A DNA stretch of 64,000 bases. Source: a virus. Taxonomy: Duplodnaviria; Caudoviricetes. The position numbers and the translations under genes are program-made. Positions 4,410-55,034 of the stretch are shown here, piece after piece. The notes beneath the pieces are model-generated. The model was not told the origin of the DNA, made no database searches, and saw only the letters and a program-made list of their open reading frames with translations. The number at the start of each line of letters is the position of its first letter. Position 1 is the first letter of the stretch. Location: IMG/VR virus record IMGVR_UViG_3300031949_001696; one strand, given 5' to 3'.

Positions 4410-4445
4410 TTGACAGGTGTAGCCACAAAGTGGCACCGTCCGTCG
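4410..4445 (+). promoter_or_regulatory. Putative sigma70-type promoter of the RHH gene
   Basis: TTGACA at 4410-4415 in an intergenic gap ~30 bp upstream of GTG 4446; the -10 element is weak. Confidence 0.4.
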
Positions 4446-6008: not shown

Positions 6009-6083
6009 GCGTGATGCAAATTCTCCACTTCACGCAATTGCTCAGGCATCTCGCTGATGTGCGGCAGCACCACAGCTGCACAT

Positions 6084-9025: not shown

Positions 9026-9349
9026 GTGAGCGTGGCGCCCATGAATCCTGATCCGAACTCGGTTCCCGCGCCGATCGAACCCACGTTCGCGCTGCTCGTG
9101 ATGTGTGTCGAGTGCGGTCAGGGCATCGAGGCGCCGCTGCCGATCGACTACCGCTCGTTCGTGTATTTCTTGGCCACGCACGGCTGGTTCCCGGCCGCGC
9201 TGTCGCCGCCTGATCAGGGACCTGAAGTCCCGATCCTCTGCGCCGCGCTGTGTCCGAGCTGCGCGCAGCAGAAATATCCACCCGAGGTCTTTCAAGTCGC
9301 TGAGGAGCGTCGACAGAAGATGCTGCAAGGCATGCAGGAAGTGCGATGA
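9026..9349 (+). CDS. Zinc-binding hypothetical protein, paralog of 948..1217
   Basis: CVEC...EAPLPI...GW...ALCPSCA...YPPEV. Confidence 0.7.
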   Translation: MSVAPMNPDPNSVPAPIEPTFALLVMCVECGQGIEAPLPIDYRSFVYFLATHGWFPAALSPPDQGPEVPILCAALCPSCAQQKYPPEVFQVAEERRQKMLQGMQEVR

Positions 9350-11141
9350 GGAAGGGCGATGAGTAGCAACGAAGAAACTGCCGCGAGTCAAGTCGTCCAG
9401 CACCTGCGCGACGTATACGGGCCAACAATGCCGTACGACGGCTTGCCCGAGGGCACCACGGTTGGAACGACGTTTCAGTTCGCGGGACTCTCGATCGGCT
9501 ACAACCGCGAGCACCTGCTATTGCCCGACGAGGACAAGCTCGCCGACCTCCTGCGTGAAGCAGCGACCAAGTGCCGCTCGATCACGGAGGCCGAGAAGCG
9601 CGAGCACGCGGCCGAACTTGCCGACGAGCGCGAAGGCTAACGAGCATGGCTTTCACCAAGGAGCAGCCCAAGGTGGGCGCTACGATCATGCACTGCGGTC
9701 ACCTCGACCGCGGCGCGATGCACTGGTTTCAATACGAAAAGCCGATTGGTTTTTCGCGACCTGATCAGACCCGCGGGACGGCCGAGTGGTTCGCGGCGTG
9801 CGAGCCGTGCTTCATCAAGCACGGCAAGAAAGTCGCGAGCATCGTCCGTGGCGATGCCATCTGGACCGGCGGCGCGACCATCGAGAAAGAGGAGAGCTAG
9901 ATCATGCCCAGTGCCATCGACCAGCGGCGGCTACGCGACGGAGCGCACGCGCTCGACGTCTCTAGCCGGGTGCCCGTGACGATCGACGAAGCGCGCAGCC
10001 AGTTAGAGATCGTCCACGCAGGTCTCGCGGCGCTTCAATCTCTCGACGATCTGGGCGAAGAAGCGAACGCGCGCGCAGAGTGCGATCAGCAGGTGCTGTG
10101 GAAACGCTACGAGGAGCTGAAGAAGCATCTCAAGCGCCTCGAAGGGAAGGAGATCTCGTGAGCAGTGATCAAGAGCAGGGGCTGCGGATCCTCGACAACG
10201 CGCTGTGGCGCATCGCGCGCCGCGGCGACTGTGAATACTACGACGACGAGAAGAGCCGTCCCAAGCCGTGCGATTGCCCGCGGTGCGTGGCGACCGCCGC
10301 GCTCGAAGCCGCCAAGAACTGGCGCTTTCACGGCTCGCACCACGAGCGGGTGCAGAGTGGTAATTGGCCACGCGAGACCAAGATGCAGGCAGCGTGGATG
10401 AAGCTTGCCAGCGGGCACGGCCGCGATTCGGATCAGTTGCTCGCACAGATCCTCAAGGACGATCGCGTGCCGAGCGTGCGTGACTGGTACGTCGCGACGA
10501 GCGTCATCCAGTGGCTCGCCACCAACGTCGGGATGACCGTGCTCGAAGCCGCGGGCTTCAAGTACCAGCAGTGGGAGCAGGACATGGCCGACGGCCCATT
10601 GTTCAACCGCCGCCAGGAGCGCGAGGACAACGACAAGAAGCGCGCGGAGGCCAAGCCGTGACCGCCGCCTCCGATGATCGCGAGCTGCGCGACGACAAGG
10701 GCCAGCTCTGCGTGAAGCGCGGCACGAATTTCAAGTACCAGTACCTCTACGACGACCATCTACCGTGCCGCGTGGACCGGTCGACCACTGCCGGCGGCTG
10801 CTCCGCGTGCGGCGCGACGCTCTCGGAGGACCACGCCGCGCGGGGGGTTACCATGTGCGTAGTCTGCGTGGTGCGTACGCTGCGGGAGGCGCGATGACTT
10901 CGATCCTCGAACCGGATCCGCTGCCCGGCACCGTCGAACGTCTCGAACGCGCGCTGGTGGCGGCCTACACAGACGTCGAGGTCCTGACGGCCGATCGCGA
11001 TCGGCTGTCCAAGCTCTCTGACTCGATGTTCGAGAAGGGATACGACCAGGCGGTTCGCGAGATCCGCGATCACTTCAAGAAGCTGCGACAGCCCGACGTC
11101 GTGACCGAAGTCGAGAAGATCTGGCTCAAGGAGAAGCACGC

Positions 11142-11633
11142 ATGAATGACCGAACCCCCTTCCCGAAGTTCATGGACGATCGAACGCCCTACCCGAAGTA
11201 TCAGAGTTGTCCGTGCGGCTCCGGGCAGAAGTACAAGTTCTGCTGCTACACGAAGGGCTTTCACTACTATCTCGATGATGTCGACGAAGTATCTAGAGCC
11301 GTGCCGATGTCCAAAGAGACCAGTGAGCTGCTCGCCCAGCACCGTGCGAACGTCGAGAAGAAGCTCGGTCGTCCGGTGCGCCCCGACGACCCCGTCTTCC
11401 CCGAACTCGTGACTCTCAGTCCAGAGGACCTCAAGAAACAGATGATCGCTGATTTTCGGAAGGTTGGGATTCGTTCTGAGCTGATCTACGCCTTCGAGAA
11501 GACCGGCCTGATGGTGACCGATCAGAACAAACACCTCATCCCAGACATCGATCTCGCGGCGTGGAGCGCCGCTGTCGAGGAGTATTACGAGTATTACGAG
11601 CTGCATCCCGAAGACGATCCGAGGACCACGTGA
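11142..11633 (+). CDS. SEC-C motif protein
   Basis: CPCGSGQKYKFCC motif near the N-terminus. Confidence 0.8.
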   Translation: MNDRTPFPKFMDDRTPYPKYQSCPCGSGQKYKFCCYTKGFHYYLDDVDEVSRAVPMSKETSELLAQHRANVEKKLGRPVRPDDPVFPELVTLSPEDLKKQMIADFRKVGIRSELIYAFEKTGLMVTDQNKHLIPDIDLAAWSAAVEEYYEYYELHPEDDPRTT

Positions 11634-14600
11634 CAACCGCCGCCCACTATCACGTGTGGTGTCTGTCGTGGGACGACGAGGAGGAGTACGGATCCGACGT
11701 CGTCGGCTACGACATCTTCTGCCACGACTTCAAGACCGAGAAGCGCGGCATCGTCTACGTCCCGAGCACCACGCTCTACGACGCGAAGGCTGCGGCGGAG
11801 GCATACGCCGACTACGCGTATAGACAACGCGACGGCTGGGAGTCGACCTGGCCGCTCGTGTTCCGCGTCCGTGGCTCGGATGGACAGGTCACAGACTTCG
11901 ATGTCGACTGCCAGCACGTCCCCGAGTTTTCTGCGTCGCCGCTCGAACGACCTGCCGACCTGTGCGCCGACTCATGCGAGCGCTGCGATGCTACGTGCCG
12001 ACAAGTCGAGGACGCCGTGCGTCGGGTCCCGTGCCCGAAGCACGGCACCACGCGCTGGCAGCGCGAGCTCGACGCGATCGCTGCGGGAGAGGCTCTGTGA
12101 AGCTGACGAAGGACATGACGAGGGGAGAGCGTGCGAAGACGGTACTCTTGCTCCGCTGCGCTGCCGAGGTCGCTGTCACGGGTGATCACGTCCTCGGGCC
12201 CAGTCGGCACACCGCACCGCGCCTGGGTCTCGACAAGCACGTGTGCGCTCTCGCGACTCGGGCCGTGAGGTACGTCGCGAGGGAGACGGGACGAGATCCC
12301 GACGCCGCAAACGATCTCGACGAGTACGTCAGCGTCGTGCTCGAAGCGGCGCAGTGCATCGAGGAGAGATCGTGGCCATGAAGAAGTCGAAGAAGATGAA
12401 GCCACGCCCCCTCGCGCCCAAGCAGCGCGAGGTGCTCGCTCGCTCCGCCGTCGGCGAAGATCGCCAGCTGCCCGCGCGCTACGATCCGGGACCGCCGCCG
12501 TTCATGCGACCGGCGATGCGCTGGTTCGTGCCGCCCGGGCTCGTGGTCCCTAGTGGATCGGTCGAGTATCAGGCTGCGCGAGCGCTAGCCGCGCGAGGGC
12601 TGCTCAAGCTTGGCAGTGTTCCGCCGTCGCCCGAGCTGCCGTACGGTCAGGGTGGGTACCTCATCACGAAGAAAGGAAAGTCGGCACTTCGATGAAGAGC
12701 TTACAGATCGACGGCAAAGTCATGGGCGTCATCCACGCCAAGAAGACCGAGGGTCAGTCGAGGATCTGGCTGACCGCGAAACCCGACGCGACGTGGTGGA
12801 TCGTGGTCGAGGGACCTGATCAGCGGATCCGCGAAGTAGGCTTCGTTCGACCTCCGCAGGAAGCGCGCGCTCGGGACACCTACGCTTCCTTGAGCAAGCC
12901 GCACGTGCTCGAAGCATTCCTGGAGGGGAAGGATTCTTGATGACCACTCCGCGCGAGTTCATTGACGATGAGTTCTCGTTCACCGTCTGGCCGAAGGACG
13001 GATCGGACGACGACGCGCTCGACGTTCACGCGCTAACTCCGAACCAGGCCGCCGAGCTGCGAGCGAAGACCGACTACACCGGCGATCCCGACTGGCGGGC
13101 CAGCTACTGCGTCCGCAACAACTTCACGGGGACGCTCTACGTGATCGACGTCGGTGTCGTTCCGCAGCCCTCGTTCGTGGCGCTCCTCGCGCGCGAGGTG
13201 CCCATACCGGCCGCTACCCACGTGCTGTGGGGAGGCCACGTCTTGTGCGAGGACAAGCGACTGCGCGGCGTCCCACGCGACTGGCCCCAAGATCAGCGCT
13301 GGATCTCGCTCCAGGATGTCGCCGACGGAACCGAGGTTCCAGCAAATCTTCAGTGCGAAGCGTGCTTCGCCAAGGCGCCCGGGCTCGTGGCCGGCATCCG
13401 CCAGATCGGAGTGAAGGCTCGATGAAGAAGGTCGCGAGGACCGCACGACTCGTCGTCGTCGAGAACTGTGTCGGCTGTCCGTTCTCGTACGAGTGCGACA
13501 ACGAATGGACGTGCACGACCGCGGAAGACGACGATGGTCATTACAAGACGATCATGCGTACGCAGAAGCGCCGCGGCGGACCGTGGCTGCCGCCACCGAA
13601 GTGGTGTCCCCTGCGCGCCGAGATCGTCGTCGTTACTCTCGGAGAAAAGGCAAGATCATGAAAACCGTCGACGTCGAGTGCTCCTGCTACGGCTGCACGA
13701 TCAAGCGCCAGCGCTTGGGCATCGTTCCGCCCGATCGCTCCGCCGAGCCGTGTCAACCACCGGGCGCATGCGCGAGCCACGGCCAGTGCTGGACCCACAG
13801 TGAGTGGGTCGATGAGGCGCGCTGTGATCCTCCGAACGCGTGCGTCACTGGATCGCACTGCGCGACGCATGCTGCACGCAAAGAGGTGTCGTGACCGAGT
13901 CGTACTCGCTACTCGACGACAACGACGGTCGTTGTGAGCAATGCAACGACCCGAAGACTGTCGAGCAAGTCCAACAGACGTATCCGATCAAGCCGCGGGG
14001 TGATTTGCAATGGGGGACGCTGTGGCTCTGTCCGCTTTGTCTGGCCAAGGCCAAGCTCCGCGATCAGGACAAGAATATCCCGGCGATCGCGAGCGCGACG
14101 CGGGGTGAGACCAAGCCACTTGTCCTCCAGGATGCAGGCTGGCGCGATGTCGCCGCCGACTTTCTCCGAATTGGCCGACTCAGCGAGGCCGTCGATCTCA
14201 TCCACCGCCACCTGAGCGATGGTTGGCTTAAGCTCGTGCCCGGAGACTTCATCTCTTTCGACGAGCAGGGCGTCTCTACGACGTTGAGAAACGACGGCCA
14301 GGTTACGGCGCGCATCAAGCTCGTCGTTCTTCATGACCTTCGGGACCCGATCACAGATGCGATTGCGGAAAGCAGGCCGCGTTATGAGTAATCCATTCTC
14401 CTGGTACCGCATGCTGTACTGGCGGTTCCGCTGGCACGTCTTCCCGCGTCGGCGCTACACCACGCGCTGTCAATACTGCGCCGCGATCACCGGCCGCACG
14501 ATGCACGTGTGGGCGACCGAAGACGTGTGCGCGAGCTGCGCCGCACCACTTCTGGAAATGGAGAGCGTGAACGGATGACCTACGATCAAATGCTCGACCA

Positions 14601-28859: not shown

Positions 28860-29579
28860 AGGAGAGCTGCGACTGTCCCCACTGCGGAGAGCCGTGCGAT
28901 CGCGAGGAGGTCGACGTCGGTGTTGGCGTGATCCACGGCCCGTGGGGCTGTGCGGGTTGCGGATGGTCGAGCGACGAGGTGTATGACTGTCGTGACGGCG
29001 TCCGCCGCGACGGTGATGACCGAGTGTTCGATCAGTACGGGGTCTCCCACCACATCGACCGGATCGGCGGCAAGGCAGTGCTCGCCGGAATCAACGTCAA
29101 CGACCGCGGAGTAGGTCGAGAAAAGGACACGCCATGATGGACATGATGGTCGCGGTGCTGGGAATCCTGCTGTTCTTATCGTTCGTGTGGGCGCTGAGCG
29201 AACGCGCCCGCTGTCAACTGCTCGCCGAGGATCGAGACTTTTGGCATCGGCTCTATCGTGACACTGACGAGCAGAAGCGCCGCCTGTTCGAGCGCATGCT
29301 GGAGGTCGATCACGACTGCCCAAGAGCGACGCGGTCGTGACCGACGCCGAGTGGGAAGCGCGGCGCAAGCGCGCGATCTTTGCCGCGTTCCAGACGGGCC
29401 GACCGGTGTTCGCCGATTCCGACGGGGAGATGCGCTTCGCCGATGGGGATCACGAGCGGCTTGCCGAAGGCGCCGGCATGCCCAAGACTGCCGTCCCTCA
29501 GCAGGCGACAGTTTCGTCCACCTGGCGGTCGCGGGTGAAAAGCTGGTTCGGAGGTAGGTCGTGAAACCAGCATCGTACG

Positions 29580-32500
29580 ATTTCGGTCGTTAGCAGGCAT
29601 GTTCACGTTTTTTGCCGACGTGTCGATCCCAGCCCACGTCTCCGTCTCGGCCGTCAACCAAACCGAGCAAGTAGTCTCGGCCGTCAACCAACCGAGCAAG
29701 CACGATCACACGCCGACGAAACGCAACAACGGCGACGTGAGGCAGTCTCGGCCGTCAACCGACCGAGCAAGTACGATCACGTAGGCTGTCGGCGTGTCGG
29801 CGTGCAGCTCGGCGAGCTGCAACCGTCTCGGTCGTCAACCAACCGAGCAAGCACGATCACCTCAACCACGATCGCGTCAGCCGCGACGCGACGACGCGAC
29901 GCTAGTCTCGGTCGGTCGTCAACCAACCGAGCAAGTATCACCCGCCAAGGATCTGGCTGACCTCGCGCTCTGTTGGGAGTCTCGGTCGTCAACCAACCGA
30001 GCAAGCACGATCACTTTTCACTTTGGTCCTTGATCAATCACGAAGCTCTTTGTCAGAGTCTCGGTCGTCAACCAACCGAGCAAGCACGATCACACCAGGC
30101 TCCAGGCTCGGTGATCAACCTCAGCGAGCGCTCCACGTCTCGGTTGTCAACCAACCGAGCAAGTACGATCACAAGGGGCATGCGCCGCTCTCGCTCGAGC
30201 TGCTCAAGGTCTCGGTCGTCAACCAACCGAGCAAGTACGATCACAAGGGGCATGCGCCGCTCTCGCTCGAGCTGCTCAAGGTCTCGGTCGTCAACCAACC
30301 GAGCAAGTACGATCACCGTCTACCCTCGGTGCGTTGCTGCGCGACTTGCCGGTCTCGGTCGTCAACCAACCGAGCAAGTACGATCACATGACGTAACTGT
30401 GGACCCAACAACCTAGTCCGGGTCTCGGCCGTCAACCAACCGAGCAAGTACGATCACATCGCTCGTCGGGTGCTAACCTCCTAGCAAAGGGGAGTCTCGG
30501 TCGTCAACCAACCGAGCAAGTACGATCACACGATCCTCAAGGGCGACAACCGCGCCATGACGAAGTCTCGGTCGTCAACCAACCGAGCAAGTACGATCAC
30601 AGACCGAGGCTTCGTTGCAATTGCGGCGTGACCTCCGGTCTCGGTCGTCAAGTACGATCACCCATGTACCGCCCGCACGAGCACGGTGACGGCGAGGAGT
30701 TTTTCCACGTCTCGGTCGTCAACCAACCGAGCAAGTACGATCACGTTCCGTACGCGCTCTTGCGGTCAGCGGTGTCACTGTCTCGGTCGTCAACCAACCG
30801 AGCAAGTACGATCACGAGACCACTGCGTTTCCGCTCGTCGAGGATGCTTTCGTCTCGGTTGTCAACCAACCGAGCAAGTACGATCACTTTTGGTTTCCTC
30901 GTCACAGACTGCGTAGACACTGTCTCGGTCGTCAACCAACCGAGCAAGTACGATCACGCGCAGCGGTGGGGCGGGAAGCTGCCGTACGACGAGTCTCGGT
31001 CGTCAACCAACCGAGCAAGTACGATTACATGGGGCATGCGCCGCTCACAGCTGCGCGCGCTCGTCGAAGCGAAGAACTACGCCCTGTCTCGGTCGTCAAC
31101 CAACCGAGCAAGTACGATCACACAGGAGTCGGCCCAGTGTAGACCCTGGCGGATGGTCGTCTCGGTCGTCAACCAACCGAGCAAGTACGATCACACGCTC
31201 GCGAGCGCGTCAATCGCCGCCGAATGCGTGCAGGGTCTCGGTCGTCAACCAACCGAGCAAGTACGATCACGTGCCGCCTGATACGGGGCCCGCTCGTCGC
31301 GCTTGTCTCGGTCGTCAACCAACCGAGCAAGTACGATCACCCAAGTCCGCCACCTCCAACTGCCGCACGAGGTCCACGTCTCGGTCGTCAACCAACCGAG
31401 CAAGTACGATCACCAGCATCGTGGGCGTCGACGGCGCGACCGCTCACTGGTCTCGGTCGTCAACCAACCGAGCAAGTACGATCACGCTGGACTTGCGCGA
31501 TCCCGCCGTTCGTGTCCGCGAGTCTCGGTCGTCAACCAACCGAGCAAGTACGATCACCTGGCGGGCAGAGACACCTCTGCCTTGGAGGTCTGGTCTCGGT
31601 CGTCAACCAACCGAGCAAGTACGATCACCGCCGATGCCAAGCGCGCGAGCGACAGAACTCGTCGTGTCTCAGTCGTCAACCAACCGAGCAAGTACGATCA
31701 CCGCGCTCTGCCTGCTGCTGCGCAAGCGAATGACTGTGTCTCGGTCGTCAACCAACCGAGCAAGTACGATCACCTGGCGTCGGTCGGTGCCGCCGCCGAG
31801 GAACCGATCGAGTCTCGGTCGTCAACCAACCGAGCAAGTACGATCACTGCGCGAATACCAAACGCGCATGCACGCCCTGTGTGTGTCTCGGTCGTCAACC
31901 AACCGAGCAAGTACGATCACGCGTCGGTGCCTCGGGCGACGATCCGCGGCTCACCTTGTCTCGGTCGTCAACCAACCGAGCAAGTACGATCACCCGGGTG
32001 CAACGCCACGGAGAGTGGACAAGTGTCTTGTCTCGGTCGTCAACCAACCGAGCAAGTACGATCACCTTCTGCTGTCGTCTTGGCCCGGGAACACCATGCC
32101 GGTCTCGGTCGTCAACCAACCGAGCAAGTACGATCACGCTCGTGCGCCTGCGATAAGACGCCTCTCGTACGCAGTCTCGGTCGTCAACCAACCGAGCAAG
32201 TACGATCACCCAGCCGGATTGAGAGTCAGAAAGCTGACCCTGAAGTCTCGGTCGTCAACCAACCGAGCAAGTACGATCACAATCACGGTTACAACTGGGT
32301 CAGCCCGCGTACGATAGTCTCGGTCGTCAACCAACCGAGCAAGTACGATCACCACGGGGTGGGTGACGTCGATACTCGCCGCGCTGGTGGTCTCGGTCGT
32401 CAACCAACCAACCGAGCAAGTACGATCACATTCGGCATCAACCTGCCGACGCTGCAAGAAGCCGAGTCTCGGTCGTCAACCAACCGAGCAAGTACGATCA

Positions 32501-33146
32501 CACCGCCCGGTCGTCTCGTACCGCACCGCTAGATCGTGTCTCGGTCGTCAACCAACCGAGCAAGTACGATCACGACCGAAGACGTTGGTGGGTACCTTCG
32601 CGTCGCGTAGTCTCGGTCGTCAACCAACCGAGCAAGTACGATCACAACCGATGCGCTGCGGATCCACGAGGGCTTTCGCGAGTCTCGGTCGTCAACCAAC
32701 CGAGCAAGTACGATCACACCCGCACACGGGCGAAGATGTCGGCGAGGTACTGGTCTCGGTCGTCAACCAACCGAGCAAGTACGATCACTCGCAATCTCGT
32801 CGCCAGCGAGGCGCCGTTTTCCTGTCTCGGTCGTCAACCAACCGAGCAAGTACGATCACTTCGCGCTGCTGTGGCGTTCGGGTCGCTCGCAGCGTCTCGG
32901 TCGTCAACCAACCGAGCAAGTACGATCACGCAACGTCACGCCTTCGCCGGGCGGCGGTTGGGACGTTGTCTCGGTCGTCAACCAACCGAGCAAGTACGAT
33001 CACGCTGGCGGGCAGAGACACCTCTGCCTTGGAAATCTGGTCTCGGTCGTCAACCAACCGAGCAAGTACGATCACCCCTCCATGCTCGTGGCCGCGTCCT
33101 CGACCTCCGGGTCTCGGTCGTCAACCAACCGAGCAAGTACGATCAC
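29580..33146 (-). CRISPR. CRISPR array of ~50 repeats and ~48 spacers; 36-nt repeat GTGATCGTACTTGCTCGGTTGGTTGACGACCGAGAC (crRNA sense)
   Basis: Manual count gave 49 recognisable copies of GTCTCGGTCGTCAACCAACCGAGCAAGTACGATCAC from 29644 to 33146, plus a very degenerate copy at 29580-29606. Spacers are mostly 34-38 nt. Degeneration at the left end and the cas gene at the right end indicate minus-strand transcription. The repeat forms a 3' hairpin CTCGGTTG-GTTGA-CGACCGAG. Confidence 0.98.
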
Positions 33147-33210
33147 CGTCTTCAACTATTCAGTTGTCATCTCGCAATCTTATACAGCTCGATCGCGAGC
33201 ACCTACCGTC
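33147..33210 (-). promoter_or_regulatory. Short CRISPR leader
   Basis: 64 bp of lower GC between the effector stop and the first repeat; -10-like TATAAGAT (33177-33184) and a small inverted repeat CAACT-N4-AGTTG. Confidence 0.6.
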
Positions 33211-35511
33211 TCAGCGTTGTTTGCCGAGCGCAGCAACGGCGTTAGATCCCGCAACCGAGCGCGATGCCTTCGGTTTGACGGGCGCAAGTACCTGCGGGGC
33301 AGGTGTCGTCGGCACGGGCGGCACCGGTCCGTTCGAGTGACCGTGTCGATGCAGGAGGTTGCGGCACGCGTTCGCGTCCTGATCCCAGGTCTGACTGCAC
33401 GACGAGCAGGTGTGCTCGATCGCGGCTTTCGCGTCGAACACCTCGATCGAAGTGCACCACGCGCATTCGCGCGTCGAGTCCGCGGTCTCCTCGACCTCGA
33501 CGCGGGCACCGCGCTTGGGGGCGGCTTTGATGATCTCGGCGCGCAGCTCGCCCGGCGCGGCCAGCCGGCTCATCCGGCGTTGCTCTCGGCCCTCGGACGG
33601 GTCGCCGTCCTCGGGCTCTGGGCGCTCCCAGCCGTCGATTTCAGTTAGCTTCATCGTACCCCCGACCGATCCGCCGCCACCGCCCGCGTGGTCCGGGGAT
33701 CGGTTCGCACCGCCCTCAATCAAGATCATCGCGTAGGTATTCGTCAGCTCGGCGGCAAGCACGCGCCACGTCTCGCGACGGTGGGCGATCAGCCGATCGC
33801 GCTGGTGCTCCTGCCAGTTCTGGAGGTGGCGATCATGGCGCGCCCACGCCTGGAGTGCGGCGAGGATCTCGCTGTCGCCGGTGATCCTGTTCGCCTTCGA
33901 GCTGAAATCCGACGGGTTGCACTGCTTCTTCCCCGCAGCGCGCGCGGTACGCCAGGCATCCCAGTCGATCCCGGTCCACGCGTCGACGAGTGCCTGGAGC
34001 TTGCGCGGCGCGCGCCACTGCGCGAGGCCGGCGAGGCGATCTGTCAGGCCTGACGGCGTCTCCCGGTCGCGCAGCCACGTGACCAGCCGATCGCGTGCGG
34101 TCTCGAATTCCTTGTCGCGGGTTCCCGCCAGGTCGTAGACCTTGTCCATACCGAAGAGGAGCTTGTTCGGCACGCGGATCTCGCGCTCGCGCCCCGTGTC
34201 GTCGACGAGATAGCCGACGCGTAGGCCGATCTGGTTACCCTCGTCGTCGAACAGCCGCCGCCAGCTCAGGTCGATCGCGCATGCGCCCGTGCCGATCGCG
34301 TCCGGGCACGCGCGGAAGATCTCGCTCTCGATCGTGACCTGAAACCGCCACTCGTAGTGGCGGCCAACGCGCTTGCGCACGACGTACGCCCATTTGATCA
34401 CGGCGTCCTTCGGCAGTGGCCGATGAAGAGTGACCGGAAAGCGCGCGAAGATCGGTGATCGATCTGGGTTAGAGCCGACGCGGAGGTCGACGTATGTCCG
34501 TGCCGCGTGACGCCGTAGGTTGCGCGAGAGTTGAGGGACAGCTGCCCACGCCTCCTCTCGTGGCGGATGTTTAACTGCGCGGGAGCCGGGATCTTGCCGC
34601 GACAAGAGCTCGGGGACGGTGTCTCGATCGTCATCGTCACCTGATCGAGCAAAGATTTCGACTTCTGGACGCGGATGTTTGTCGCTCGCTCCAGGAGCAT
34701 GGATGCGAAGACGAGGATCCATGCACGAGAATGCCTCACGCACCGTCATGCCGCCGATGACCTGCGTACCGATCGATCCGGTACCGTCGCAGCGCTTGAA
34801 GTGCGGCGGATGCTTGGTCGACGCCGCGGCCTGCTTGAGCGCGGTTTCGACGCGGTCGTAGGTCCCGGTGCGCAGTCCTCGCGCGGAGTAGTCTGCACGG
34901 GAGGCGAGCCGCTTGGCGTGGGCTTGATCCCTCGCGTTCTGGTAACCCGCCGCGAGGGCGAGATCTGGTTCTACGGATTTGTGCAGTGCCGCGAACAACG
35001 TGCGCTTGGCCGCACTTAACTCGGCCTTGATCCGTTCGTGATCCTCCTTGGAGATCTCCGGATCCTTGAGGCGGCGCATCCTCGGACCGATCTCGGGATG
35101 CGCGAGAAGCACGTCTTGGAGATGCGCTCCTTGCGCGCGCTTCGCCTCGCGCAGATCGGACGCGAACAGCGCGCGAAGCTCCTTGGCGGCAGCGAGGCGG
35201 AGACGGTGCTCGGTCAGGTCGGGATCTGCCACGCCCGACTTCGCGGCGCGGAGGTCCTCGTACGCGTTTCCGACGTCGCCGTCCGCGCCCTCGTAGAGCT
35301 GGAGTGCCTTGCCGATGATCGGATGATCGAGTTGGACGCCGCGGAAGTGCTCTCGAAGGCGGATCTCGATCTCGACGAGGGCGTTGCGGTACTGCCCCGC
35401 GAGCCAGAACTGATCTTCGACGCGCTTGCCCTCGGTGATCGGAGGCAGGCAGCGGTACGAGTAGATCCGGGTGGGAACGTCGGATGTCTTCTTGCGGCGG
35501 GCGCGTGGCAT
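33211..35511 (-). CDS. cas12m: Type V CRISPR effector, Cas12m (V-M/V-U1)-like, ~766 aa
   Basis: Motifs in Cas12m order: QFWLAGQYRNALVEIE, FKRCDGTGSIGTQV, RVGS...FPVTLHRPLP, AIDLSWR (RuvC-I), QWRAPRKL, ILIE (RuvC-II), AAPGELR, CAWC...CSSC, WDQDANA (RuvC-III). Directly abuts the array. Start chosen at ATG 35511; alternatives are 35517 and 35553. Subtype is assigned from recalled motifs, not from a search. Confidence 0.85.
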   Translation of the reverse strand: MPRARRKKTSDVPTRIYSYRCLPPITEGKRVEDQFWLAGQYRNALVEIEIRLREHFRGVQLDHPIIGKALQLYEGADGDVGNAYEDLRAAKSGVADPDLTEHRLRLAAAKELRALFASDLREAKRAQGAHLQDVLLAHPEIGPRMRRLKDPEISKEDHERIKAELSAAKRTLFAALHKSVEPDLALAAGYQNARDQAHAKRLASRADYSARGLRTGTYDRVETALKQAAASTKHPPHFKRCDGTGSIGTQVIGGMTVREAFSCMDPRLRIHAPGASDKHPRPEVEIFARSGDDDDRDTVPELLSRQDPGSRAVKHPPREEAWAAVPQLSRNLRRHAARTYVDLRVGSNPDRSPIFARFPVTLHRPLPKDAVIKWAYVVRKRVGRHYEWRFQVTIESEIFRACPDAIGTGACAIDLSWRRLFDDEGNQIGLRVGYLVDDTGREREIRVPNKLLFGMDKVYDLAGTRDKEFETARDRLVTWLRDRETPSGLTDRLAGLAQWRAPRKLQALVDAWTGIDWDAWRTARAAGKKQCNPSDFSSKANRITGDSEILAALQAWARHDRHLQNWQEHQRDRLIAHRRETWRVLAAELTNTYAMILIEGGANRSPDHAGGGGGSVGGTMKLTEIDGWERPEPEDGDPSEGREQRRMSRLAAPGELRAEIIKAAPKRGARVEVEETADSTRECAWCTSIEVFDAKAAIEHTCSSCSQTWDQDANACRNLLHRHGHSNGPVPPVPTTPAPQVLAPVKPKASRSVAGSNAVAALGKQR

Positions 35512-35552
35512 TGACATCCTGTTAGCTGTTTGATAGACGTTTTGCAAGACCA

Positions 35553-35717
35553 ATGTTTGAACCGAAGCGATCCAGCCGAGAGAGCCTAGCCAACTACATC
35601 GGCGCGCGCGTGACGAACTCCGAGGAGGCGTGGCTGCGCACCGAGATGAAGAAGCGGAAGCTTACGATGAGTGACTTGATTCGTCTGGCCCTCGGCCGAC
35701 TCAAGGAAAAGGTGTGA
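35553..35717 (+). CDS. 54-aa RHH (CopG/MobC-like) regulator divergent from the cas gene; absent from the ORF track
   Basis: Hand translation: MFEPKRSSRESLANYIGARVTNSEEAWLRTEMKKRKLTMSDLIRLALGRLKEKV. Confidence 0.7.
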   Translation: MFEPKRSSRESLANYIGARVTNSEEAWLRTEMKKRKLTMSDLIRLALGRLKEKV

Positions 35718-35724
35718 ATGCCCA

Positions 35725-36762
35725 GTGACGAAGCTCCTTACACGCAAGCAATTCAGTGATGGGTGTCTCGCACGTGATCGTCATCGTTGCGTGATGTGCG
35801 GTAGCACCGACAGCATTCATGTCCATCACATCGTCGAACGAAAGCTTTGGCCCAATGACGGTTTTTTCCTCGACAACGGCGCATCGGTCTGCGAGCCCTG
35901 CCACCTCCGAACCGAGTCAACGGAGATCTCGTGCGACGAGCTGAGGAAGCGCTGCGGCATCGACCGCGCGCACCTGCCCGATCACTTCTGTCCCGATGAA
36001 GTTATCGACAAATGGGGCAACATTCTCCTGCCTAACGGCCAGCGGCTGCGCGGCGAGCTGTTCGACGACGAGGGAGCGCAGAAGATCCTCGCACCCGTGC
36101 TCCATCTGTTCACGTCACGCGTGAAGTACCCGAGGACTTTTCATTTACCGTGGAGCCCAGGCAAGACGAGCGACGATCGGACGATGGACGACCCGGACGC
36201 AGCGTTCGGCGGTGCTGAGATCGTCGTGACCGAGAAGGTCGACGGTGAATGTTCGACGCTTTATCGCGACTACCTCCACGCGCGAGGCATCGACTACGCG
36301 TCGCATCCTTCGCGTGATCGTCTGCGCGCACTCCACGCCACCATCGCCCACGACATCCCTGAAGGATGGCGCGTGTGCGGCGAAAACATCTACGCCGTGC
36401 ATTCGATCGCGTACGACGCGCTCCCCGCGCACTTTCTGGTGTTCTCGATCTGGAACGAGCGAAACGAGTGTCTGTCCTGGGACGAGACGGTCACGTGTGC
36501 GCAGCTCCTGGGCCTTCACACTGTTCCTGTGATCGCGCGCGGGACGTGGAACGAGGAGCACGCGCGCCTCTCCGACGGCGAGGCCAAGAGTCAGCTCGGC
36601 GGCGATCGCGAGGGCTACGTCGTTCGCCTCGCGGGGGGCTTCCATTACCGCGCGTTCCGGCGATCTGTCGCCAAGTACGTTCGCAAGAATCACGTCCAGA
36701 CCAACGATCACTGGAAGACGCAGGCGGTGGTCGCGAACAAGCTGCGAGAGATCGCACCCTGA
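35725..36762 (+). CDS. HNH-domain / ATP-dependent RNA ligase fusion
   Basis: N-terminal RDRHRCVMCG...VHHI...NGASVCEPCH; C-terminal KYPRTFHLPWSPG, TEKVDGE (motif I Lys), GEN, REGYVVR, AKYVR. Confidence 0.85.
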   Translation: MTKLLTRKQFSDGCLARDRHRCVMCGSTDSIHVHHIVERKLWPNDGFFLDNGASVCEPCHLRTESTEISCDELRKRCGIDRAHLPDHFCPDEVIDKWGNILLPNGQRLRGELFDDEGAQKILAPVLHLFTSRVKYPRTFHLPWSPGKTSDDRTMDDPDAAFGGAEIVVTEKVDGECSTLYRDYLHARGIDYASHPSRDRLRALHATIAHDIPEGWRVCGENIYAVHSIAYDALPAHFLVFSIWNERNECLSWDETVTCAQLLGLHTVPVIARGTWNEEHARLSDGEAKSQLGGDREGYVVRLAGGFHYRAFRRSVAKYVRKNHVQTNDHWKTQAVVANKLREIAP

Positions 36763-37020: not shown

Positions 37021-40000
37021 CTCTCCCAACGCACGTCGAAAACTTGCTCGCCAAAGCGCGCTGGCGACAAGAACTCAACAAGCGCGGCTACGAAGGAAGG
37101 CTACCCGTGGCATCTGAGCGTCTCGCAGAAGCACTTCGCACGGAACTCCGCGCGATCCTTGATAACGACGGCAAGCCGTTCGATCTTCAAGTTGCGCGGC
37201 ACGTCTACGACTTCGCGATCGCTGCAAAGGACTTGCTCACGGTGTCCGTGAAGACCGTCGAGGACGCGATGCGCGTGGTCGCCGACAACAACGGAGCCAT
37301 GGAATCCTTGACGGGAGCCGGCGATCCGCTGCCCCCCGAGGTCGCGAGCGAGACATTCGGTGCGCGCATCATGCGAGAGCTATTCGCCTTGATGCCCTCG
37401 GTCCTCCGCAAGAACAACGAGGATCCACTCGCGATCGTCGCCGCGATCGCCGACGCGCGCGAGCGCGGGATGCACGACGTGGCCGCCAAGCTCGAACAAA
37501 GGCTACTCGGCACGCCGCTCGAGCCGCCTAAGGTCACGATGACCGAGGTCGTCGACGACAGCTACGAGCACGGTTTCATCGACGGATCGATGCAGGACAA
37601 CTTCGACCGCGGCACCATCAACGGTCACGTGGCACGCGATCTGCGGCAAGCGTCGCCAGCATATCGTGAGGGCTTCGAGGCCGGACGAGAGCGTCGCGCG
37701 CTCAAAGATGCCGTCCCGCCGCCGGCTGTCACGCCATCGTCCATACGCGGAGTTGATATCTGCGCGGGCTGCGGCAATCGCGAATGTTTCAATGTCTGCT
37801 GTCATCCGTCGAACAAACTGCGTGCGTCGTCGAACGGGCAGCACAGCCTGCCCAATGGAGACTCGCCGTGAGGGCCTGGTATGTGCCGAGCTGGAACGGC
37901 GATTTCCGGCTCACGCCCGGCGACGACGACGGCACGTCCAAGCTCCTCATCATGGCGCCGACGCCGCACGAGACGCAGCTCCTCGCGTCGTTCATGACGG
38001 TGGCACGCAAGAAGAAATGGTCGAAAGAAAAGCTGGCCAAGGACGAGGCGATCGACACTCGAACGATCATCCTTGACGCCCCGCTGACGAAGGTGGGACC
38101 AGCGCTCGTCAAGATCACCAAGCCGGTCGATCGCACGCTGACGGCGGTTTCATTCAAGAACGGACAGCTTGAAGTCGCCGAGACGGGCGCGATCGAGACG
38201 ATCATCGCCAAAGCGGATCCAGAATCTAAGGCCGTCAGCGTCGCGCGGCCGACGCCGTGCTGCCCATCGTGCGTACCCGGCTCCGTCGAGCCCGCTAGCG
38301 ACGTCCTGCTCTCGTTTCTCTCCGATCAGGAGCACGCCGACTGGGCGAAGCATCGCGCGATCATGGTGATGGGTGGCCGATCTGGGCATCGCTACCTGAT
38401 CGCGCACCGCCACTCACGGACGGCGGTGCTCAACCGCAAGATCTGTTACGACGTCGACGACCGCTGCGTGCTGCACTTCCACGACTGGACAGTGCCGCCC
38501 GAAGAAGAGGTCCTCGCGACCAAGCTCATCCTGGAGCACCGCGAGGCGTGGTTGCGCAACGAGGCGACCGTCTTGCAGCAGGACGGCAAGGGCGAGTGGC
38601 ACGATCTTGGTATTATGCGTTACAAGAACCCGTTCGGTGACGCGAGCGACGGCCGGGACGACGCCGCATTGACGGCGCTGCTGGGGGCTGTCCTCGCGGC
38701 GGCCTTCAACGGAGACGTGCCGCGGGGAGAGCGCCGATGAAGCCGCGACTGCCTTCCGTATCGTCGGACGCACGCACCGTGCTGCCTGGGCGCGAAGTCA
38801 CCTATCACGAGGTGCCAACGAAGCCCGAGGTCAAGCGTGACCGTGGGAGCCCTGCGCATGACATGCGGCTGATCGTCATCAACGTCCTGACCGGCGTGCG
38901 TGCGCGCTGGGGTCGACTCTCCGTCACCGACAAACGGAAGATCGTCTCCCACCTGCGATCGGTCGCCGACCTCATCGAGAAGGCGATCGGAGGCGACGCT
39001 CCGTGAAGCCTCCCGCGCCGCAGCGCCTCCTCTGCCAGCGCGTGCGCGACACCTTCCCGCAGCGCGATGGCGTGAAGAGCGGCCTCGATCATTGCTCCCA
39101 GTGCGGGGAGCGCGTACGCGTCGCGGACACGTCGCGCGACGCCATCAAGATCTACGCGCAGGCAGAGATCTGGTGCCTCGACTGTTGCGCCCAAGATCCG
39201 CCGCCGAGCGGCATCGAGTGGGAATACACCGACGCGCAGATCGCCGAGATCGCTCGCGTGACGGGCAAGCCACCTGCTGAGATCGTCGAACAGCTCACGG
39301 CAGTTCTACCGTCGCTACGAAAGCAGAGGCCCCAAGACACATGATCGATCGCGCGACCGGCGAGCAGCTCTATCCGTGCTCCGACTGCGGTGTGCTCCGC
39401 ACGAAGGCGGAGGGCGGCACCGTGTTCACGGTGTGCGACGACTGCTGGGACAAGCATCATCCACCATGCGAGTCCATCGGCGCGAAGCTTCTCTCGGCAA
39501 CGCGCGAGCAGCTGTCCCGAACGTCAACTGTTCAGGCAAGTTCAAAGGCTGAGCGTCAACCGCCCAAGGGGCGCATCATGATCACACCGCGCCCCTTCGT
39601 GCTCGATCCCGGAGAGGCATGCTGGTGCAACCGCGGCAAGGACTGCGACGGTAACCACGAGATCTACCTCGACGAGCCTGTTCACCGCTGCGGGTTTTGC
39701 GGCAAGACGTTCGAGATCAAACCCGACGATCCGCACTGGTCGACCGGCCGGGGACCTCTCTGCCCGACCAGAGGACGCTTGCGTACCTGGCTCACCCAGA
39801 CGGGCCGCTTGAAGTCCGTGCCGCAGTTCGTGTCGCCGCCGAGAACCAAGGACAAATCGTGACGCAGTCGAAGCAAGACGACACGCAAGAGCTTCGCCGC
39901 CAAGCGTTCCGGCTGATCACGCTCTCGTACGCGTTGATGATCGCGATCATCCTCGGCGTGGCTGCCGTGATCGTCGCGCGGACGTTGGCACCTGAGTGCG

Positions 40001-50803: not shown

Positions 50804-51988
50804 ATGACGATCATCGGTGGCCTCTGCTGTGGCGGTTGCGGCTGCGGTGATTGCGAGGGCGAGTGTGGTGAGCGGGGCAAACGTGGCAAGCGCGGTCACC
50901 GTGGTCACGATGGACTCGACGGCGCGACAGGACCGACGGGACCGACGGGACCGACGGGACCGACCGGCGCAACCGGCGTCGGTACGACCGGACCCACAGG
51001 ACCGACGGGGCCGAGCGACGGACCGACGGGCCCGACGGGTCCGACAGGTCCGACAGGTCCGACAGGAGCGACGGGTCCGACAGGTACCACGGGCGTCGGC
51101 AGCACGGGTCCGACAGGTCCGACGGGGCCGAGCGACGGACCAACGGGCCCGACGGGCGCTACTGGCTCGCCAGGAACGCCAGGCGGTCCCACGGGACCGA
51201 CGGGACCGACGGGATCGAACTCGGGAATTCTGGCAGCGCTCACGCTCACACCACCGATCACGGCAGCGCTCGCGGGCGGCGACAACAACGACTTTGCTCC
51301 GGCCGGTGGCGGAACTTCGAGCGTCTGGCGTCTGACCGGTGGTGGGATCAGCGGATCGACCATCACCGGTATGTTGACCGGCGGCGCGAACACCGATGGG
51401 CGGGTCGTCGTCGTCGAGAACGTCGGCATACTCAACATCTCGTTCACGAATCAAGACGTGAACTCGGTGGCAACGAACCGCTTTGTTTTCCCTGCGGCCG
51501 CGAGCTCGTTCGTGATTCCGAGTGGGGGCACCGCCGCGTTCATCTACGACGGGACGACGGCACGCTGGCGAATGCTGGCGATCGTTTCGCCGACACTACC
51601 CCTCACCACCATCAGCACCGCACTGGTCGTCCAAAGCTCGATCACCGCCTTTGGTGCGATCACGGGGCAGTCCACGACGGTGGCCGCGGCGGGCGCGCAG
51701 AACGACTACAACCCGGCCGGTAACTGGCCCGGGAACCAGAACCTCTTCCTCGCGGCAGGTGTCGCGCTCAGCATCACTGGTTTCGATGCGACGGGCGTCA
51801 ACGCTGGACAGGTCATCAATCTCATCAACACGAGTGCGGCGGACTCGTGCACGCTCGTGCACAACAGTGGCGCGTCACTCGCAGCGAACCGGCTCTTCTT
51901 GCCCAACAGCGTGAACTTCGTGGTGCCGCCAAACGGTGCCGTCAGCCTCGTTCGTACGTTCACGGGCGTCTGGCAAGTGATCGGCTGA
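50804..51988 (+). CDS. Collagen-like fibre protein
   Basis: Cys-rich N-terminus, long Gly-X-Y (GPT) run, then two tandem ~100-aa beta-rich domains (NDFAP...NRF...W and NDYNP...NRL...W). Confidence 0.85.
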
Positions 51989-52097
51989 TCACAGCCAATA
52001 AAATGGAGAGGCACTTTTTTGGAGCCAAAGCCGTGACGATGTCCTCCCCATTACCAGTGATATCGAGTCGTGGCTCGATATCCAGAACACGTGATCT

Positions 52098-53273
52098 ATG
52101 GCCGTAGGATTCTTCCGACGAGCCGGCGCTGAAATCTTGCGAGTCCTCGCGAGCGCGGCCGATCCCGCGTCCGCGGCCGGCGAGGTCCAGGGCTACAGCA
52201 AGTCGGTCGCGACGATCGCGCAGCTGTTCGCGCGCGCCGGCGGCGGCGTGATCTCGCAGCTGACCCCGCTGGTCACCGTGTTCGACGACTCGGTCGCCGG
52301 GACCTACTCGAACATCCGCGGCAACCAACTCGCGACGCGGTCGCCCATCGATAATACCAAGGCGCGCATCGTCAACCTGTCGTCGAAGACGGGGACGGTG
52401 AACGCTGGCGCGACCGGCGCCACGGCGAATGGCGCCACCATCGGAGGTGGCGACGACAACTCAGCGACTGGGACGAATTCCTGTGTCCCGGGCGGTCAAG
52501 GAGGCACAGCCAGCGGCTTTGGCGCGCTGGCATGCGGATCGCTATGCTTGGCTTCAGGTACCGTGGCGATTGCCGGCGGCAATCAGTGCACGGCATCTGC
52601 TGACTATGCCGTCGCACTGGGCTCACAAAATCTGTCGAGCGCACCACAAGCCTGCACCATCGGCGCGGGATGTACTTCATCGGGCGCTGGAGCCTTCGCT
52701 CTTGGCCAAGCATGCTCGGCACAGGCTGACAACGCCTTTGCAATGGGACTTAGCTGCGTTTCGAGCGCCGTCAACGCGCATTCCCGCGGTCTGCTCGCGA
52801 AAGCGTCTCGTGTTCAGGACACGTTCGCCGCAGGTGCCTTTGATGATGTGACCGCAGGCCAAGCACAGACGACCCATCTCGTCTATCGAGGCACAACGCC
52901 CGGCGCTGCGGCCACCGAGTCGGTCGTGCTGCTCTCAAGTACGGGCGGCACGCAAATCGGACCGGTACTTGAAGACAGCAAGGCCTACGCGTTCGTGATT
53001 ACCTGCGTGATTGGAGGCACCCAGGCAGGCCCGACGCAGATCTCGCAGACGATCATCATCAAATTCACAGCGCAACGGATCGCCGGTACGTCGGTGATCA
53101 CCGGCTCTGGCGTAGGAGAGCAGTTCGGCAGCGTCGGAGGCGCGACCTGGACGTTGGCACCGACCGTCGGCGCGGGACCAGATCGCCTCATCCTGACCTT
53201 TACTACCGGCCTCGTCGCGACTGCTTGCAAAGTTGTCGCGCGCATCGAGATGACTGAAGTTGCCGCGTTCTAA
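52098..53273 (+). CDS. Tail fibre/adhesin-like protein with YadA-head-like repeats
   Basis: ~14-residue repeats such as ASGFGALACG, ASGTVAIAGG, ASADYAVALG, SSGAGAFALG. Confidence 0.7.
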   Translation: MAVGFFRRAGAEILRVLASAADPASAAGEVQGYSKSVATIAQLFARAGGGVISQLTPLVTVFDDSVAGTYSNIRGNQLATRSPIDNTKARIVNLSSKTGTVNAGATGATANGATIGGGDDNSATGTNSCVPGGQGGTASGFGALACGSLCLASGTVAIAGGNQCTASADYAVALGSQNLSSAPQACTIGAGCTSSGAGAFALGQACSAQADNAFAMGLSCVSSAVNAHSRGLLAKASRVQDTFAAGAFDDVTAGQAQTTHLVYRGTTPGAAATESVVLLSSTGGTQIGPVLEDSKAYAFVITCVIGGTQAGPTQISQTIIIKFTAQRIAGTSVITGSGVGEQFGSVGGATWTLAPTVGAGPDRLILTFTTGLVATACKVVARIEMTEVAAF

Positions 53274-53282
53274 GGAGCCGAG

Positions 53283-55034
53283 ATGCCTCCCACCAGACAA
53301 ATGAAATTCGACCCGGCGTCCGGCGAGCTCGTCGCGGTGAACGCGGCTGGAGTCGCCTACGCGCTGACGCCGACTGGGGAGTCGCCTTCTACTTACGTCG
53401 CCACGACCTACATGTTCACAGGCTCAGAGGGGACCGACTTCTTCGTTGCCCTCAGCGCGGAGATGCTCAACGCGAACTACGCGCTCACGTGGGCTCCCAA
53501 GGGATGCCCGGGCGGCGTGCCGGTCATCGATCTGCCGAACGGTGCCGGCGACCGAACGATGAGCCAGTTTCGAGTACAGACCGACATCCAACAGGACGCT
53601 GGAGATCAAGTGGAGTTTGTCGCCTTCGCGCGGGCGCCAAGCATGGCGATGCGAGTGATGATCCTGAACGGTCAGTCAAACTCTGTAGGACTCTGTCAGG
53701 CGTCGGCGGTAACAAACTATCCGAGCGCGGATCTGACGTTGCCGTTTGCAGACGTGATCATGTTCGATCACGTGGCCTACAGCAACGGCGCGCCACCGGC
53801 GTACACCGATCAGGGGCCGCAGACTCTGCGACCGCGCACCAGCAATGCAGGCGGCTACCTCGCCGGGATGGGCGGCGTCGAGCTGGTGATGGCGCGTGAG
53901 TTGGTCGCGAACACTTCCAACGGGTGGCGTTTCGGTAAGAGTGCCGTCGACGGATCAACGATCGCGCAATGGAATGACCCGGCTCTTTTACGAGACCTGT
54001 TCATCACGTTCATCGCAGCGCAGATGACGGCGGCTGGCGTCACCGATTCGTCGCTTGTCACCGTTCAGTTCGATCAAGGTGAATCTAACGTCGGATCGGG
54101 CTACGCTACCTACCTCTTGGCACTCCAAGAGCTGTTCGCAGCCATTCGCGCCGCGTTCCCTGGCTGCGGAATCCTTATCAATCGCATCTCGAACCAGGTC
54201 GACACAACTGGCGACGTCCGAGCAGCGCAGGAGTCGCTCGTACGTTCGACCATTGGTGCGCTGATCGTCTACGCAGATGACTTGGCACTGCGTGACACCG
54301 CGCACTACACCGACGATTCCTATGTGACGCTTGGCGAGCGGCTCGCAGCTCGGCAAGCGTCCGCCATCGCGGGCACGCCGGCAACCAATCCTCAATACAC
54401 GGGTGCCGGGCCGATCGTCTCGGCCGATTCGGCGAGTTCGCTGACGCCGACAATGCCGCTGCATCAGGCCGGGGACTGGCTCTACGTCGTGCTGTTTGCC
54501 ATCGGCAACAACGACTACACGCTGACGACAGCCAACGGGTTCGTGGAGGCCGTAACGCCGATCCATGATGGCGGAAGCGCGCTCAATCCTCGCCTTCAGG
54601 TCTGGAAGCAGCAAGCTACGTCTGGCGCGACGTTATCTCCCGTCATTGCCGATGCTGCTAGTGACGACTTCAAGTTCGCGTTCATCATCGTGGTCCGGGG
54701 TGGCGACGCCACCGAGGCGATCGAAGATTCCGACGCTTCGACGCCGGCGACATCGACGGCGGTCTCGTTTCCGGCCGGTGCTTCTTCGGGCCCTGATCGC
54801 CTCGTGCTGAACGTCATGGCCTTCGCCAACGACGCGATCGGCCAACGGGTGACCGCGCTCGCGAATGGGGGCTTGAGCGACCTCACCCAGCACGTAAATT
54901 TTTCGACCACGGCATCTGTCGGATACAGTTGTTTTCTGTCTGCTGGCCGTGTCGGAACCGGGCCGACTGGAAACACGACGGCGCTGCTCACTGGAACCTC
55001 TCCGCAGGCGTTGTTGACGTTGGTGCTCAAGTAA
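53283..55034 (+). CDS. Virion-associated SGNH (sialate O-acetylesterase/CE6-like) protein
   Basis: ILNGQSNS, FDQGESN and DTAHY motifs, flanked by beta-rich domains; follows the fibre genes. Confidence 0.8.
   Translation: MPPTRQMKFDPASGELVAVNAAGVAYALTPTGESPSTYVATTYMFTGSEGTDFFVALSAEMLNANYALTWAPKGCPGGVPVIDLPNGAGDRTMSQFRVQTDIQQDAGDQVEFVAFARAPSMAMRVMILNGQSNSVGLCQASAVTNYPSADLTLPFADVIMFDHVAYSNGAPPAYTDQGPQTLRPRTSNAGGYLAGMGGVELVMARELVANTSNGWRFGKSAVDGSTIAQWNDPALLRDLFITFIAAQMTAAGVTDSSLVTVQFDQGESNVGSGYATYLLALQELFAAIRAAFPGCGILINRISNQVDTTGDVRAAQESLVRSTIGALIVYADDLALRDTAHYTDDSYVTLGERLAARQASAIAGTPATNPQYTGAGPIVSADSASSLTPTMPLHQAGDWLYVVLFAIGNNDYTLTTANGFVEAVTPIHDGGSALNPRLQVWKQQATSGATLSPVIADAASDDFKFAFIIVVRGGDATEAIEDSDASTPATSTAVSFPAGASSGPDRLVLNVMAFANDAIGQRVTALANGGLSDLTQHVNFSTTASVGYSCFLSAGRVGTGPTGNTTALLTGTSPQALLTLVLK

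Follow-up and report, generated by a model that had tools for sequence, protein, structure and literature searches.

A type V-M (Cas12m-family) CRISPR locus with an enlarged effector and a long array on a probable soil jumbo phage

The stretch of viral DNA analyzed here, referred to as the window, is 64,000 nt long (IMG/VR record IMGVR_UViG_3300031949_001696; Duplodnaviria, Caudoviricetes) and belongs to a contig of 332,853 bp from a soil metagenome. It contains a CRISPR locus that consists of one large effector gene, a short leader, and a long repeat array, all on the minus strand. An earlier sequence-only reading described a RuvC/zinc-finger gene of about 766 codons that ends 64 bp before a long array, and both the gene and its distance from the array are confirmed. 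The locus has the following parts.

33211..35511 (minus strand): cas12m-family effector gene (protein P0002), 766 aa from the ATG at 35511
33147..33210 (minus strand): leader, from the stop codon to the first repeat, 64 nt
33157-33169 (minus strand): leader motif TGAcAACTGAATA, from an alignment of five related loci
29644..33146 (minus strand): CRISPR array of 49 repeats (36 nt) and 47 spacers, co-oriented with the effector gene

The effector open reading frame extends over positions 33211-35553 (minus strand) and gives a peptide chain of 780 aa if read from an upstream in-frame TTG at 35553. The ATG at 35511 is taken as the start because the database gene call and the N-termini of homologues (MPRxRRKKTSDVPTR) agree on it. 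The effector matches the PADLOC Cas12u1 profile with an E-value = 9.7e-73 and a PADLOC model named Cas12f with an E-value = 2.4e-70. Its closest sequence matches in the Protein Data Bank (PDB) are all Cas12m, i.e. 23vw (2e-51), 8hhl (MmCas12m2, 3.5e-16), and 23vu (6.2e-11), and a BLASTP comparison with MsCas12m gives 4e-38. The sole Pfam domain is the Cas12f1-like_TNB zinc ribbon (E-value = 6.5e-6), whose cysteines are invariant or nearly so in an alignment of 46 sequences from the clade described below.

33397..33465 (minus strand): TNB zinc ribbon CxxC...CxxC (C683, C686, C702, C705), Pfam Cas12f1-like_TNB

An AlphaFold (AF2) model of the effector, made from 46 homologues, has a mean pLDDT of 84.4. 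The predicted fold shows a WED domain, a helical REC lobe, a RuvC domain with a helical insertion, and the zinc-ribbon TNB, which is the fold of Cas12m. The four best PDB fold matches found with Foldseek are Cas12m2 (8hhl, 8hio, and 8hhm) and GoCas12m (8pm4), with E-values of 1e-25 to 1e-19 and TM-scores by target of 0.61–0.64; Cas12f comes next at 1e-9, which is 10–16 orders of magnitude weaker. By profile, sequence, and fold the effector is a member of the Cas12m family (type V-M, formerly V-U1). This is the lineage proposed in the sequence-only reading, and the phylogeny presented below places the effector there as well. Membership in type V-F (Cas12f/Cas14) was considered and rejected, as the fold match is 1e-9 compared with 1e-25 for Cas12m and no anti-repeat is present in the window. 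Type V-F proteins are 400–550 aa in length, act as dimers, and depend on a trans-activating CRISPR RNA (tracrRNA).

The 36-nt repeat is present in 45 copies with three or fewer mismatches between positions 29674 and 33146, where shuffled sequences lead to an expectation of zero. Three further repeats carry insertions or deletions and are situated in double-length gaps (29905-29941, 30638-30661, and 32390-32429), and a truncated terminal copy is found at 29644-29673. The 47 spacers are mostly 34–38 nt long. Degenerate repeats are gathered at the far, low-coordinate end of the array (29644-30172), and because of this clustering the 64-nt stretch beside the gene is taken as the leader. The leader motif TGAcAACTGAATA lies about 10 nt before the first repeat and is invariant at 12 of its 13 positions across the five related loci. 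The motif may serve as a promoter element or as a signal for integration; a scan for consensus promoters and terminators over positions 29300-36000, leader included, found nothing.

When read in the sense of the effector gene, the 3′ end of the repeat displays a 7-bp stem with a 7-nt loop, followed by AC. In a comparison of seven repeats from six loci, 49 of 49 stem cells are paired and three base pairs show compensatory changes, whereas pairing falls to 14–45% of cells in a control in which the partner strand is slid by 1–3 columns. The covarying 7-bp hairpin followed by AC has the geometry of the type V 5′ handle. No complement to the repeat longer than 13 nt occurs in the window outside of the array, and thus there is no sign of a tracrRNA. 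Judged computationally, the effector would be guided by a single CRISPR RNA (crRNA).

A word-indexed search yielded 90 relatives of the effector with lengths of 437–824 aa, all of them metagenomic and many on contigs of 100–461 kb. An exhaustive HMMER search gave 2,983 cluster representatives at E-values of 1e-3 or better, 910 of these at 1e-30 or better. A tree of 218 full-length proteins shows the effector nested inside the Cas12m radiation, in a clade of about 80 rows that has 100% support. Members of the clade range from 562 to 824 aa with a median of about 690 aa, compared with a median of 637 aa for the tree as a whole. At 766 aa the effector itself falls outside of the ~540–600 aa of characterized Cas12m proteins, size being a typical but non-defining trait of the family. 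Two expectations of the sequence-only reading, an enlarged effector and novelty at the level of the clade, are therefore borne out. A third, that the protein might be an intermediate between TnpB and Cas12m, does not hold up: the effector is nested within Cas12m, is larger and not smaller, and is touched by TnpB profiles over its last ~80 residues only.

The clade motifs are absent from 185,579 species-representative genomes, and the repeat is not found in these genomes either. In GenBank phages the sole relative is a distant one, in Virus Rctr197k, with 27.5% identity; a megablast search with the flanks of the window and a blastn search with the effector gene showed nothing relevant among the same phages. 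Plasmids carry only ordinary Cas12m, at 23–30% identity to the effector. Two relatives are located on IMG/VR viral contigs, and a search of IMG/VR with the repeat pattern gave no match. On these sequence comparisons the locus places on the Cas12m tree a distinct, larger, and apparently phage-restricted branch. Four members of the clade (P0063, P0065, P0077, and P0078; 807–824 aa) have an annotated IS66-type transposase domain (PF03050) joined to the Cas12m-like protein, which may represent either a merger of gene calls or a real fusion.

The same organization is conserved in related loci (designated here by L numbers). Effector, leader of ~65 nt, and co-oriented array are found in this order in L001, L006, L007, L008, L009, L015, and L019. 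The arrays of relatives have 20 to about 100 repeats, e.g. about 35 in L007, 32 in L008, at least 21 in L009, and about 40 in L002, which corresponds to the same place as L001; L006 shows at least 4 before the contig ends. The flanks of related loci consist of strings of small unannotated open reading frames together with genes for collagen, peptidoglycan (PG)-binding endolysin, AcrVA2-like, Lar, and Cpn10 proteins. In L015 (positions 706-872, minus strand) and L020 (positions 261-296, plus strand) one or two further repeats lie immediately ahead of the effector start but on the other strand, so that a divergent mini-array results; in the window no repeat is present at that place.

L001, a relative on a 461-kb contig, carries two Cas12m systems 8 kb apart (positions 1-9557 and 10001-13196). 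One has an H-D-D effector (AVHIGW, ARDD, EDQD) together with a repeat of its own and an array that spans ~7.5 kb. The other, in the stretch 10001-13196, has a D-E-D effector and a 16-repeat array of the repeat type found in the window. The two effectors share only 25% identity. Jumbo phages with two orthogonal Cas12m systems of this kind could supply orthogonal DNA-binding effectors for gene regulation tools. Gene callers have placed spurious open reading frames inside the long L001 array.

The extra ~170–190 residues of the effector relative to Cas12m proteins of 540–600 aa can be located by comparison with PDB 23vw chain A, relative to which there are about 190 more. The aligned stretches, together with the model, give five inserts.

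Residues about 125-247: insert 1, longer REC helices
Residues 286-342: insert 2, partly disordered loop
Residues 527-553: insert 3, short helical insert
Residues 603-638 (aligned stretch about 614-642): insert 4, glycine-rich disordered loop after RuvC-II
Residues 735-766: insert 5, disordered tail

In the model, enlargement thus consists of longer REC helices and of disordered loop and tail insertions, with no new globular domain predicted. The 23vw entry ("CRISPR-associated DNA-binding protein Cas12m", 577 aa), for which no paper was found in the literature, is the closest solved sequence and shares the D, E, and D motifs (AIDLGWR, IVLE, and WDQD). MmCas12m2 (8hhl, 8hio, 8hhm) and GoCas12m (8pm4), the best matches by fold, agree with the present system in the order of their domains, in having a helical insertion within RuvC, and in a 36-nt repeat whose 3′ end forms a hairpin. 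They differ in having an H-D-D site, a length of ~600 aa, a chromosomal location in actinobacteria, and only ~19–20% identity. MsCas12m of Allomeiothermus (Meiothermus) silvanus (plasmid pMESIL02, WP_013159911.1; L011) is 30% identical to the effector over the WED-RuvC-TNB half and also uses a single crRNA guide. It is however borne on a bacterial plasmid and is 536 aa in length; the effector has a much longer REC lobe and several inserted loops, and the ~1 kb fetched after the MsCas12m gene showed no tandem array.

The three RuvC positions of the effector, assigned from alignments, are at the codons given in the sequence-only reading, exactly as stated there; coordinates correspond to residue positions counted from the start at 35511.

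34270..34272 (minus strand): RuvC-I Asp414, motif CAIDLSWR
33715..33717 (minus strand): RuvC-II Glu599, motif MILIEGG
33376..33378 (minus strand): RuvC-III Asp712, motif WDQDAN

The triad matches that of MsCas12m position for position. D414 aligns with D274 of MsCas12m, and also with the H of MmCas12m2, and E599 and D712 align with the E and D of the MsCas12m triad. Of the 46 sequences in the clade alignment, 32 have D and 14 have N in the RuvC-I column. The RuvC-II column has E in 36 and G in 10, the G sequences having an E one position later, and the RuvC-III Asp is invariant (46/46). Ten of the 14 Asn-bearing members also shift or lose the RuvC-II Glu. Among 235 family proteins collected, 156 have D at the RuvC-I position, 46 have N, and 3 have H; the remainder includes a few false matches to the search pattern. 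D-E-D is the majority state of the Cas12m family in these sequences and is probably ancestral.

The spacers are almost all unique. Spacer 2, which is near the leader and newer, and the older spacer 22 share one site and differ solely at positions 5–6, in what is the seed of a type V guide proximal to the protospacer adjacent motif (PAM). A spacer acquired anew from an escape mutant would produce such a pair. Spacers 40 and 41 have the same sequence, of which 16 nt recur in spacer 29. The source soil run and two freshwater runs from other studies contain contigs with different 21–40-nt inserts between the same repeats; the sides of these repeat joints are short (27–37 nt) and some may stem from close relatives. 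Pieces of the effector gene on soil and freshwater contigs are almost identical to the window. Among public runs, no RNA data set is listed as a carrier. The array looks active and under turnover because of the seed variants of spacers 2 and 22, the duplicates 40 and 41, and the other spacers found between its repeats in three metagenomes.

The targets were searched for in several collections. None of the 47 spacers matches the 64-kb window outside of the array, and none matches the plasmid collection or the related loci that were fetched. Exact scans for the core of spacers 2 and 22 in JGI metagenomes and for the core of spacer 40 in IMG/VR found nothing. The sole phage match, of spacers 40/41 to gene 45 of Gordonia phage Easley (30/32 nt, E-value = 0.09), is treated as chance. 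With respect to strand, 30 of the 47 spacers are coding-sense-like on the plus strand of the window, a bias that is not significant (p = 0.08; orientation accuracy in the control, 71%).

Adaptation genes were expected to be lacking nearby, and this is upheld within the range of the search: the Pfam Cas1 models have no match in 20 open reading frames of the window, including all of 249 aa or more, while not all small Cas2- or Cas4-sized frames were scanned. No Cas1, Cas2, or Cas4 was found in the flanks of related loci, and Cas1 was not found in two IMG/VR records that carry distant relatives, both of them incomplete. Arrays of 20 to about 100 repeats that bear signs of recent gain, with adaptation genes not found alongside, raise the question of the source of the spacers. 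Delivery of spacers by host Cas1-Cas2, put forward in the sequence-only reading, is a hypothetical source; the repeat was found in none of the 185,579 species-representative genomes.

The carrier was taken to be phage-like in the sequence-only reading, and the neighboring genes and the contigs of relatives agree. One of these neighbors is an HNH-RNA ligase gene.

35725-36762 (plus strand): HNH endonuclease domain fused to RNA ligase, PHROG 24030, E-value = 1e-120

The best relatives of this protein are in jumbo phages of 312–485 kb; it is 48–58% identical to versions in Caulobacter, Ralstonia, and Salicola jumbo phages and in a 485-kb uncultured phage. A soil jumbo phage of ~333 kb is the best reading of the carrier, the support coming from non-structural genes. 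It is based on the jumbo-phage relatives of the HNH-RNA ligase, the UvrD-type helicase, endolysin-like, collagen-like fibre, and SASA esterase genes of the window, the flanks of related loci, the IMG/VR viral contigs, and the absence of both clade and repeat from the 185,579 genomes.

The locus is thus a well-formed CRISPR system of a known kind, situated on a new and larger branch of Cas12m. The favored explanation, with a probability of about 0.65, is that of a type V-M locus on a ~333-kb soil phage which silences competitors by RNA-guided binding. By analogy with MmCas12m2, GoCas12m, and MsCas12m, the effector would load a single crRNA, would bind PAM-flanked double-stranded DNA (dsDNA) tightly, and would keep the target from being transcribed or replicated while leaving it uncut. 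Competing phages, or other mobile elements that share the host, would be the most likely targets. Several points weigh against this explanation. No protospacer, and hence no PAM, was found in the window, plasmids, phages, related loci, or the JGI and IMG/VR scans, and no capsid, portal, or terminase was identified among the window open reading frames scanned. The effector has both its triad and its zinc ribbon intact, and in the tree all 26 of its nearest relatives keep the Asp at RuvC-I, so that some selection on the active site is plausible. Non-cleavage would moreover be extrapolated from orthologues at only ~20–30% identity.

The intact triad and zinc ribbon and the Asp kept by all 26 nearest relatives would suit a cleavage-competent Cas12m lineage in which the intact D-E-D site (D414, E599, D712) cuts target DNA and the phage destroys its competitors instead of silencing them. 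A division of labor would be consistent with L001, where a D-E-D and an H-D-D effector both come with a separate array and repeat. The sequence-only reading had likewise suggested that a protein with this D-E-D triad may be cleavage-competent. D-E-D as a mark of cleavage competence is not sustained: Asp is present in about two thirds of the 235 proteins, and Bigelyte et al. 2024 (PMC11013384), who chose eight Cas12m orthologues, four of them D-E-D, found that none cleaved dsDNA. Purified MsCas12m, with its aligned triad, left target DNA and target RNA uncut and had no collateral activity, and its D274A substitution did not affect processing of pre-crRNA (PMC11013384). Within the clade itself, sister branches with Asn for Asp at RuvC-I retain large arrays (L008, 32 repeats; L009, at least 21), and therefore catalysis is dispensable for retention of the system. 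Because D-E-D is the family majority, because MsCas12m and the D-E-D orthologues do not cut, and because Asn variants occur in its own clade, the D-E-D of the effector probably does not mean DNA cutting, and a cutting lineage is considered unlikely. A tempting misreading is corrected here, in that cutting by a member of the Cas12m family cannot be predicted from an intact D-E-D triad.

Silencing by binding could also be directed inward, as a built-in CRISPR interference (CRISPRi) system whose main task is to control the phage's own genes or those of the host and not to defend against competitors. As Cas12m only binds DNA, self-targets would be tolerated, and a handle-like hairpin in the effector mRNA and a solitary repeat 6 kb away (both described below) could be accommodated. 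However, the lack of spacer matches in the window speaks against this, the related loci have no solitary copies in their flanks, and the 47 spacers, most of which are unique, the renewed acquisition of a seed variant, and arrays that differ from sample to sample have the look of an arms race with foreign targets, so that regulation as the main role is judged quite improbable. A reading of the gene as an ordinary TnpB (IS200/IS605 or IS607), from a transposon that lies beside an array by chance, is effectively refuted. TnpB shares the RuvC and zinc-ribbon core through the common ancestry of all Cas12, some database relatives bear the label "transposase", and there are weak NCBIfam matches to IS607_TnpB (24.3 bits) and guided_TnpB (21.6 bits). 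These matches are far under the cut-offs of 350 and 100 bits, respectively, and are confined to residues 656-741, whereas the full-length profile and fold matches are to Cas12m. TnpB is also about 400 aa in length, is guided by an omega-RNA from the transposon end, and has no array, while effector, leader, and array with a covarying handle are kept in every related locus examined.

As a phage-borne type V-M locus that would silence competitors, the system resembles others reported from viruses. Huge phages carry type V-U variants and CasPhi as single-effector systems without Cas1, Cas2, or Cas4 (Al-Shayeb et al. 2020, PMC7162821), and viral V-U1-like effectors are found in landfills (PMC12607003). 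All of these are phage-borne systems built around one effector, lack Cas1, Cas2, and Cas4, and presumably act against competing phages. The size of the array sets the present clade apart: the median phage array in the survey of huge phages has six repeats (PMC7162821), compared with 49 here and 20 to about 100 in relatives.

Repeat-like hairpins are also found outside of the array.

34621..34662 (minus strand): repeat-like (crRNA-handle-like) hairpin inside the effector open reading frame, sense and in frame, encoding VEIFARSGDDDDRD (aa 284-297)
39514..39585 (minus strand): solitary repeat-like unit (39514-39549) abutting a degenerate second copy (39547-39585), found with the covariance model

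The hairpin inside the effector gene scores 18.3 bits with the covariance model (E-value = 0.004). In the window it carries a 6-nt duplication; contigs from two other metagenomes do not have the 6 nt at 34627-34632, and in these variants the unit is a perfect one of 36 nt that meets the strict handle pattern exactly. With the same covariance model, no hit at E-values up to 1 covers the hairpin at the stop codon. The sister gene in L015 (67–76% identity) has two in-frame units on the plus strand, at 1822-1857 and 2731-2766, with scores of 34.0 and 32.7 bits. Each encodes (L)ARSxDDRD and falls within one of two loops that are disordered in the model. The other clade members examined are without such units, and thus these are lineage-specific insertions, which may represent regulation of the effector or tolerated debris. 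A speculative and rather doubtful proposal is that the in-frame hairpins are working sites of Cas12m binding or processing, by which the effector recognizes or cuts its own mRNA and limits its own level, and that CRISPR repeats were the source of new ARSxDDRD loops during enlargement of the clade. In-frame crRNA handles in an effector gene would, if functional, represent a novel form of self-control.

The solitary unit at 39514-39549 scores 33.1 bits (E-value = 5e-7) and is on the strand of the array, 6 kb away, with no spacer before the second copy. It is antisense inside a cysteine-rich 173-aa open reading frame (39341-39862, plus strand). The strict handle pattern occurs in the window on the minus strand only, 45 times in the array and once at the solitary unit, and does not occur in 200 shuffled sequences. 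No meaningful match to the 3′ flank of the solitary repeat was found in the rest of the window.

The window contains no tRNAs. Other neighbors of the locus include a UvrD-type helicase and an endolysin-like PG-binding protein, and two further features are situated toward the high-coordinate end.

50804-55034 (plus strand): fibre-like gene run, consisting of a collagen-repeat protein (394 aa), a Gly/Ala/Thr-rich protein (391 aa), and a protein with a SASA carbohydrate esterase domain (583 aa)
63316-63999 (minus strand): sigma-70-like factor gene, open at the window end, with regions 2 and 4 recognized by eye

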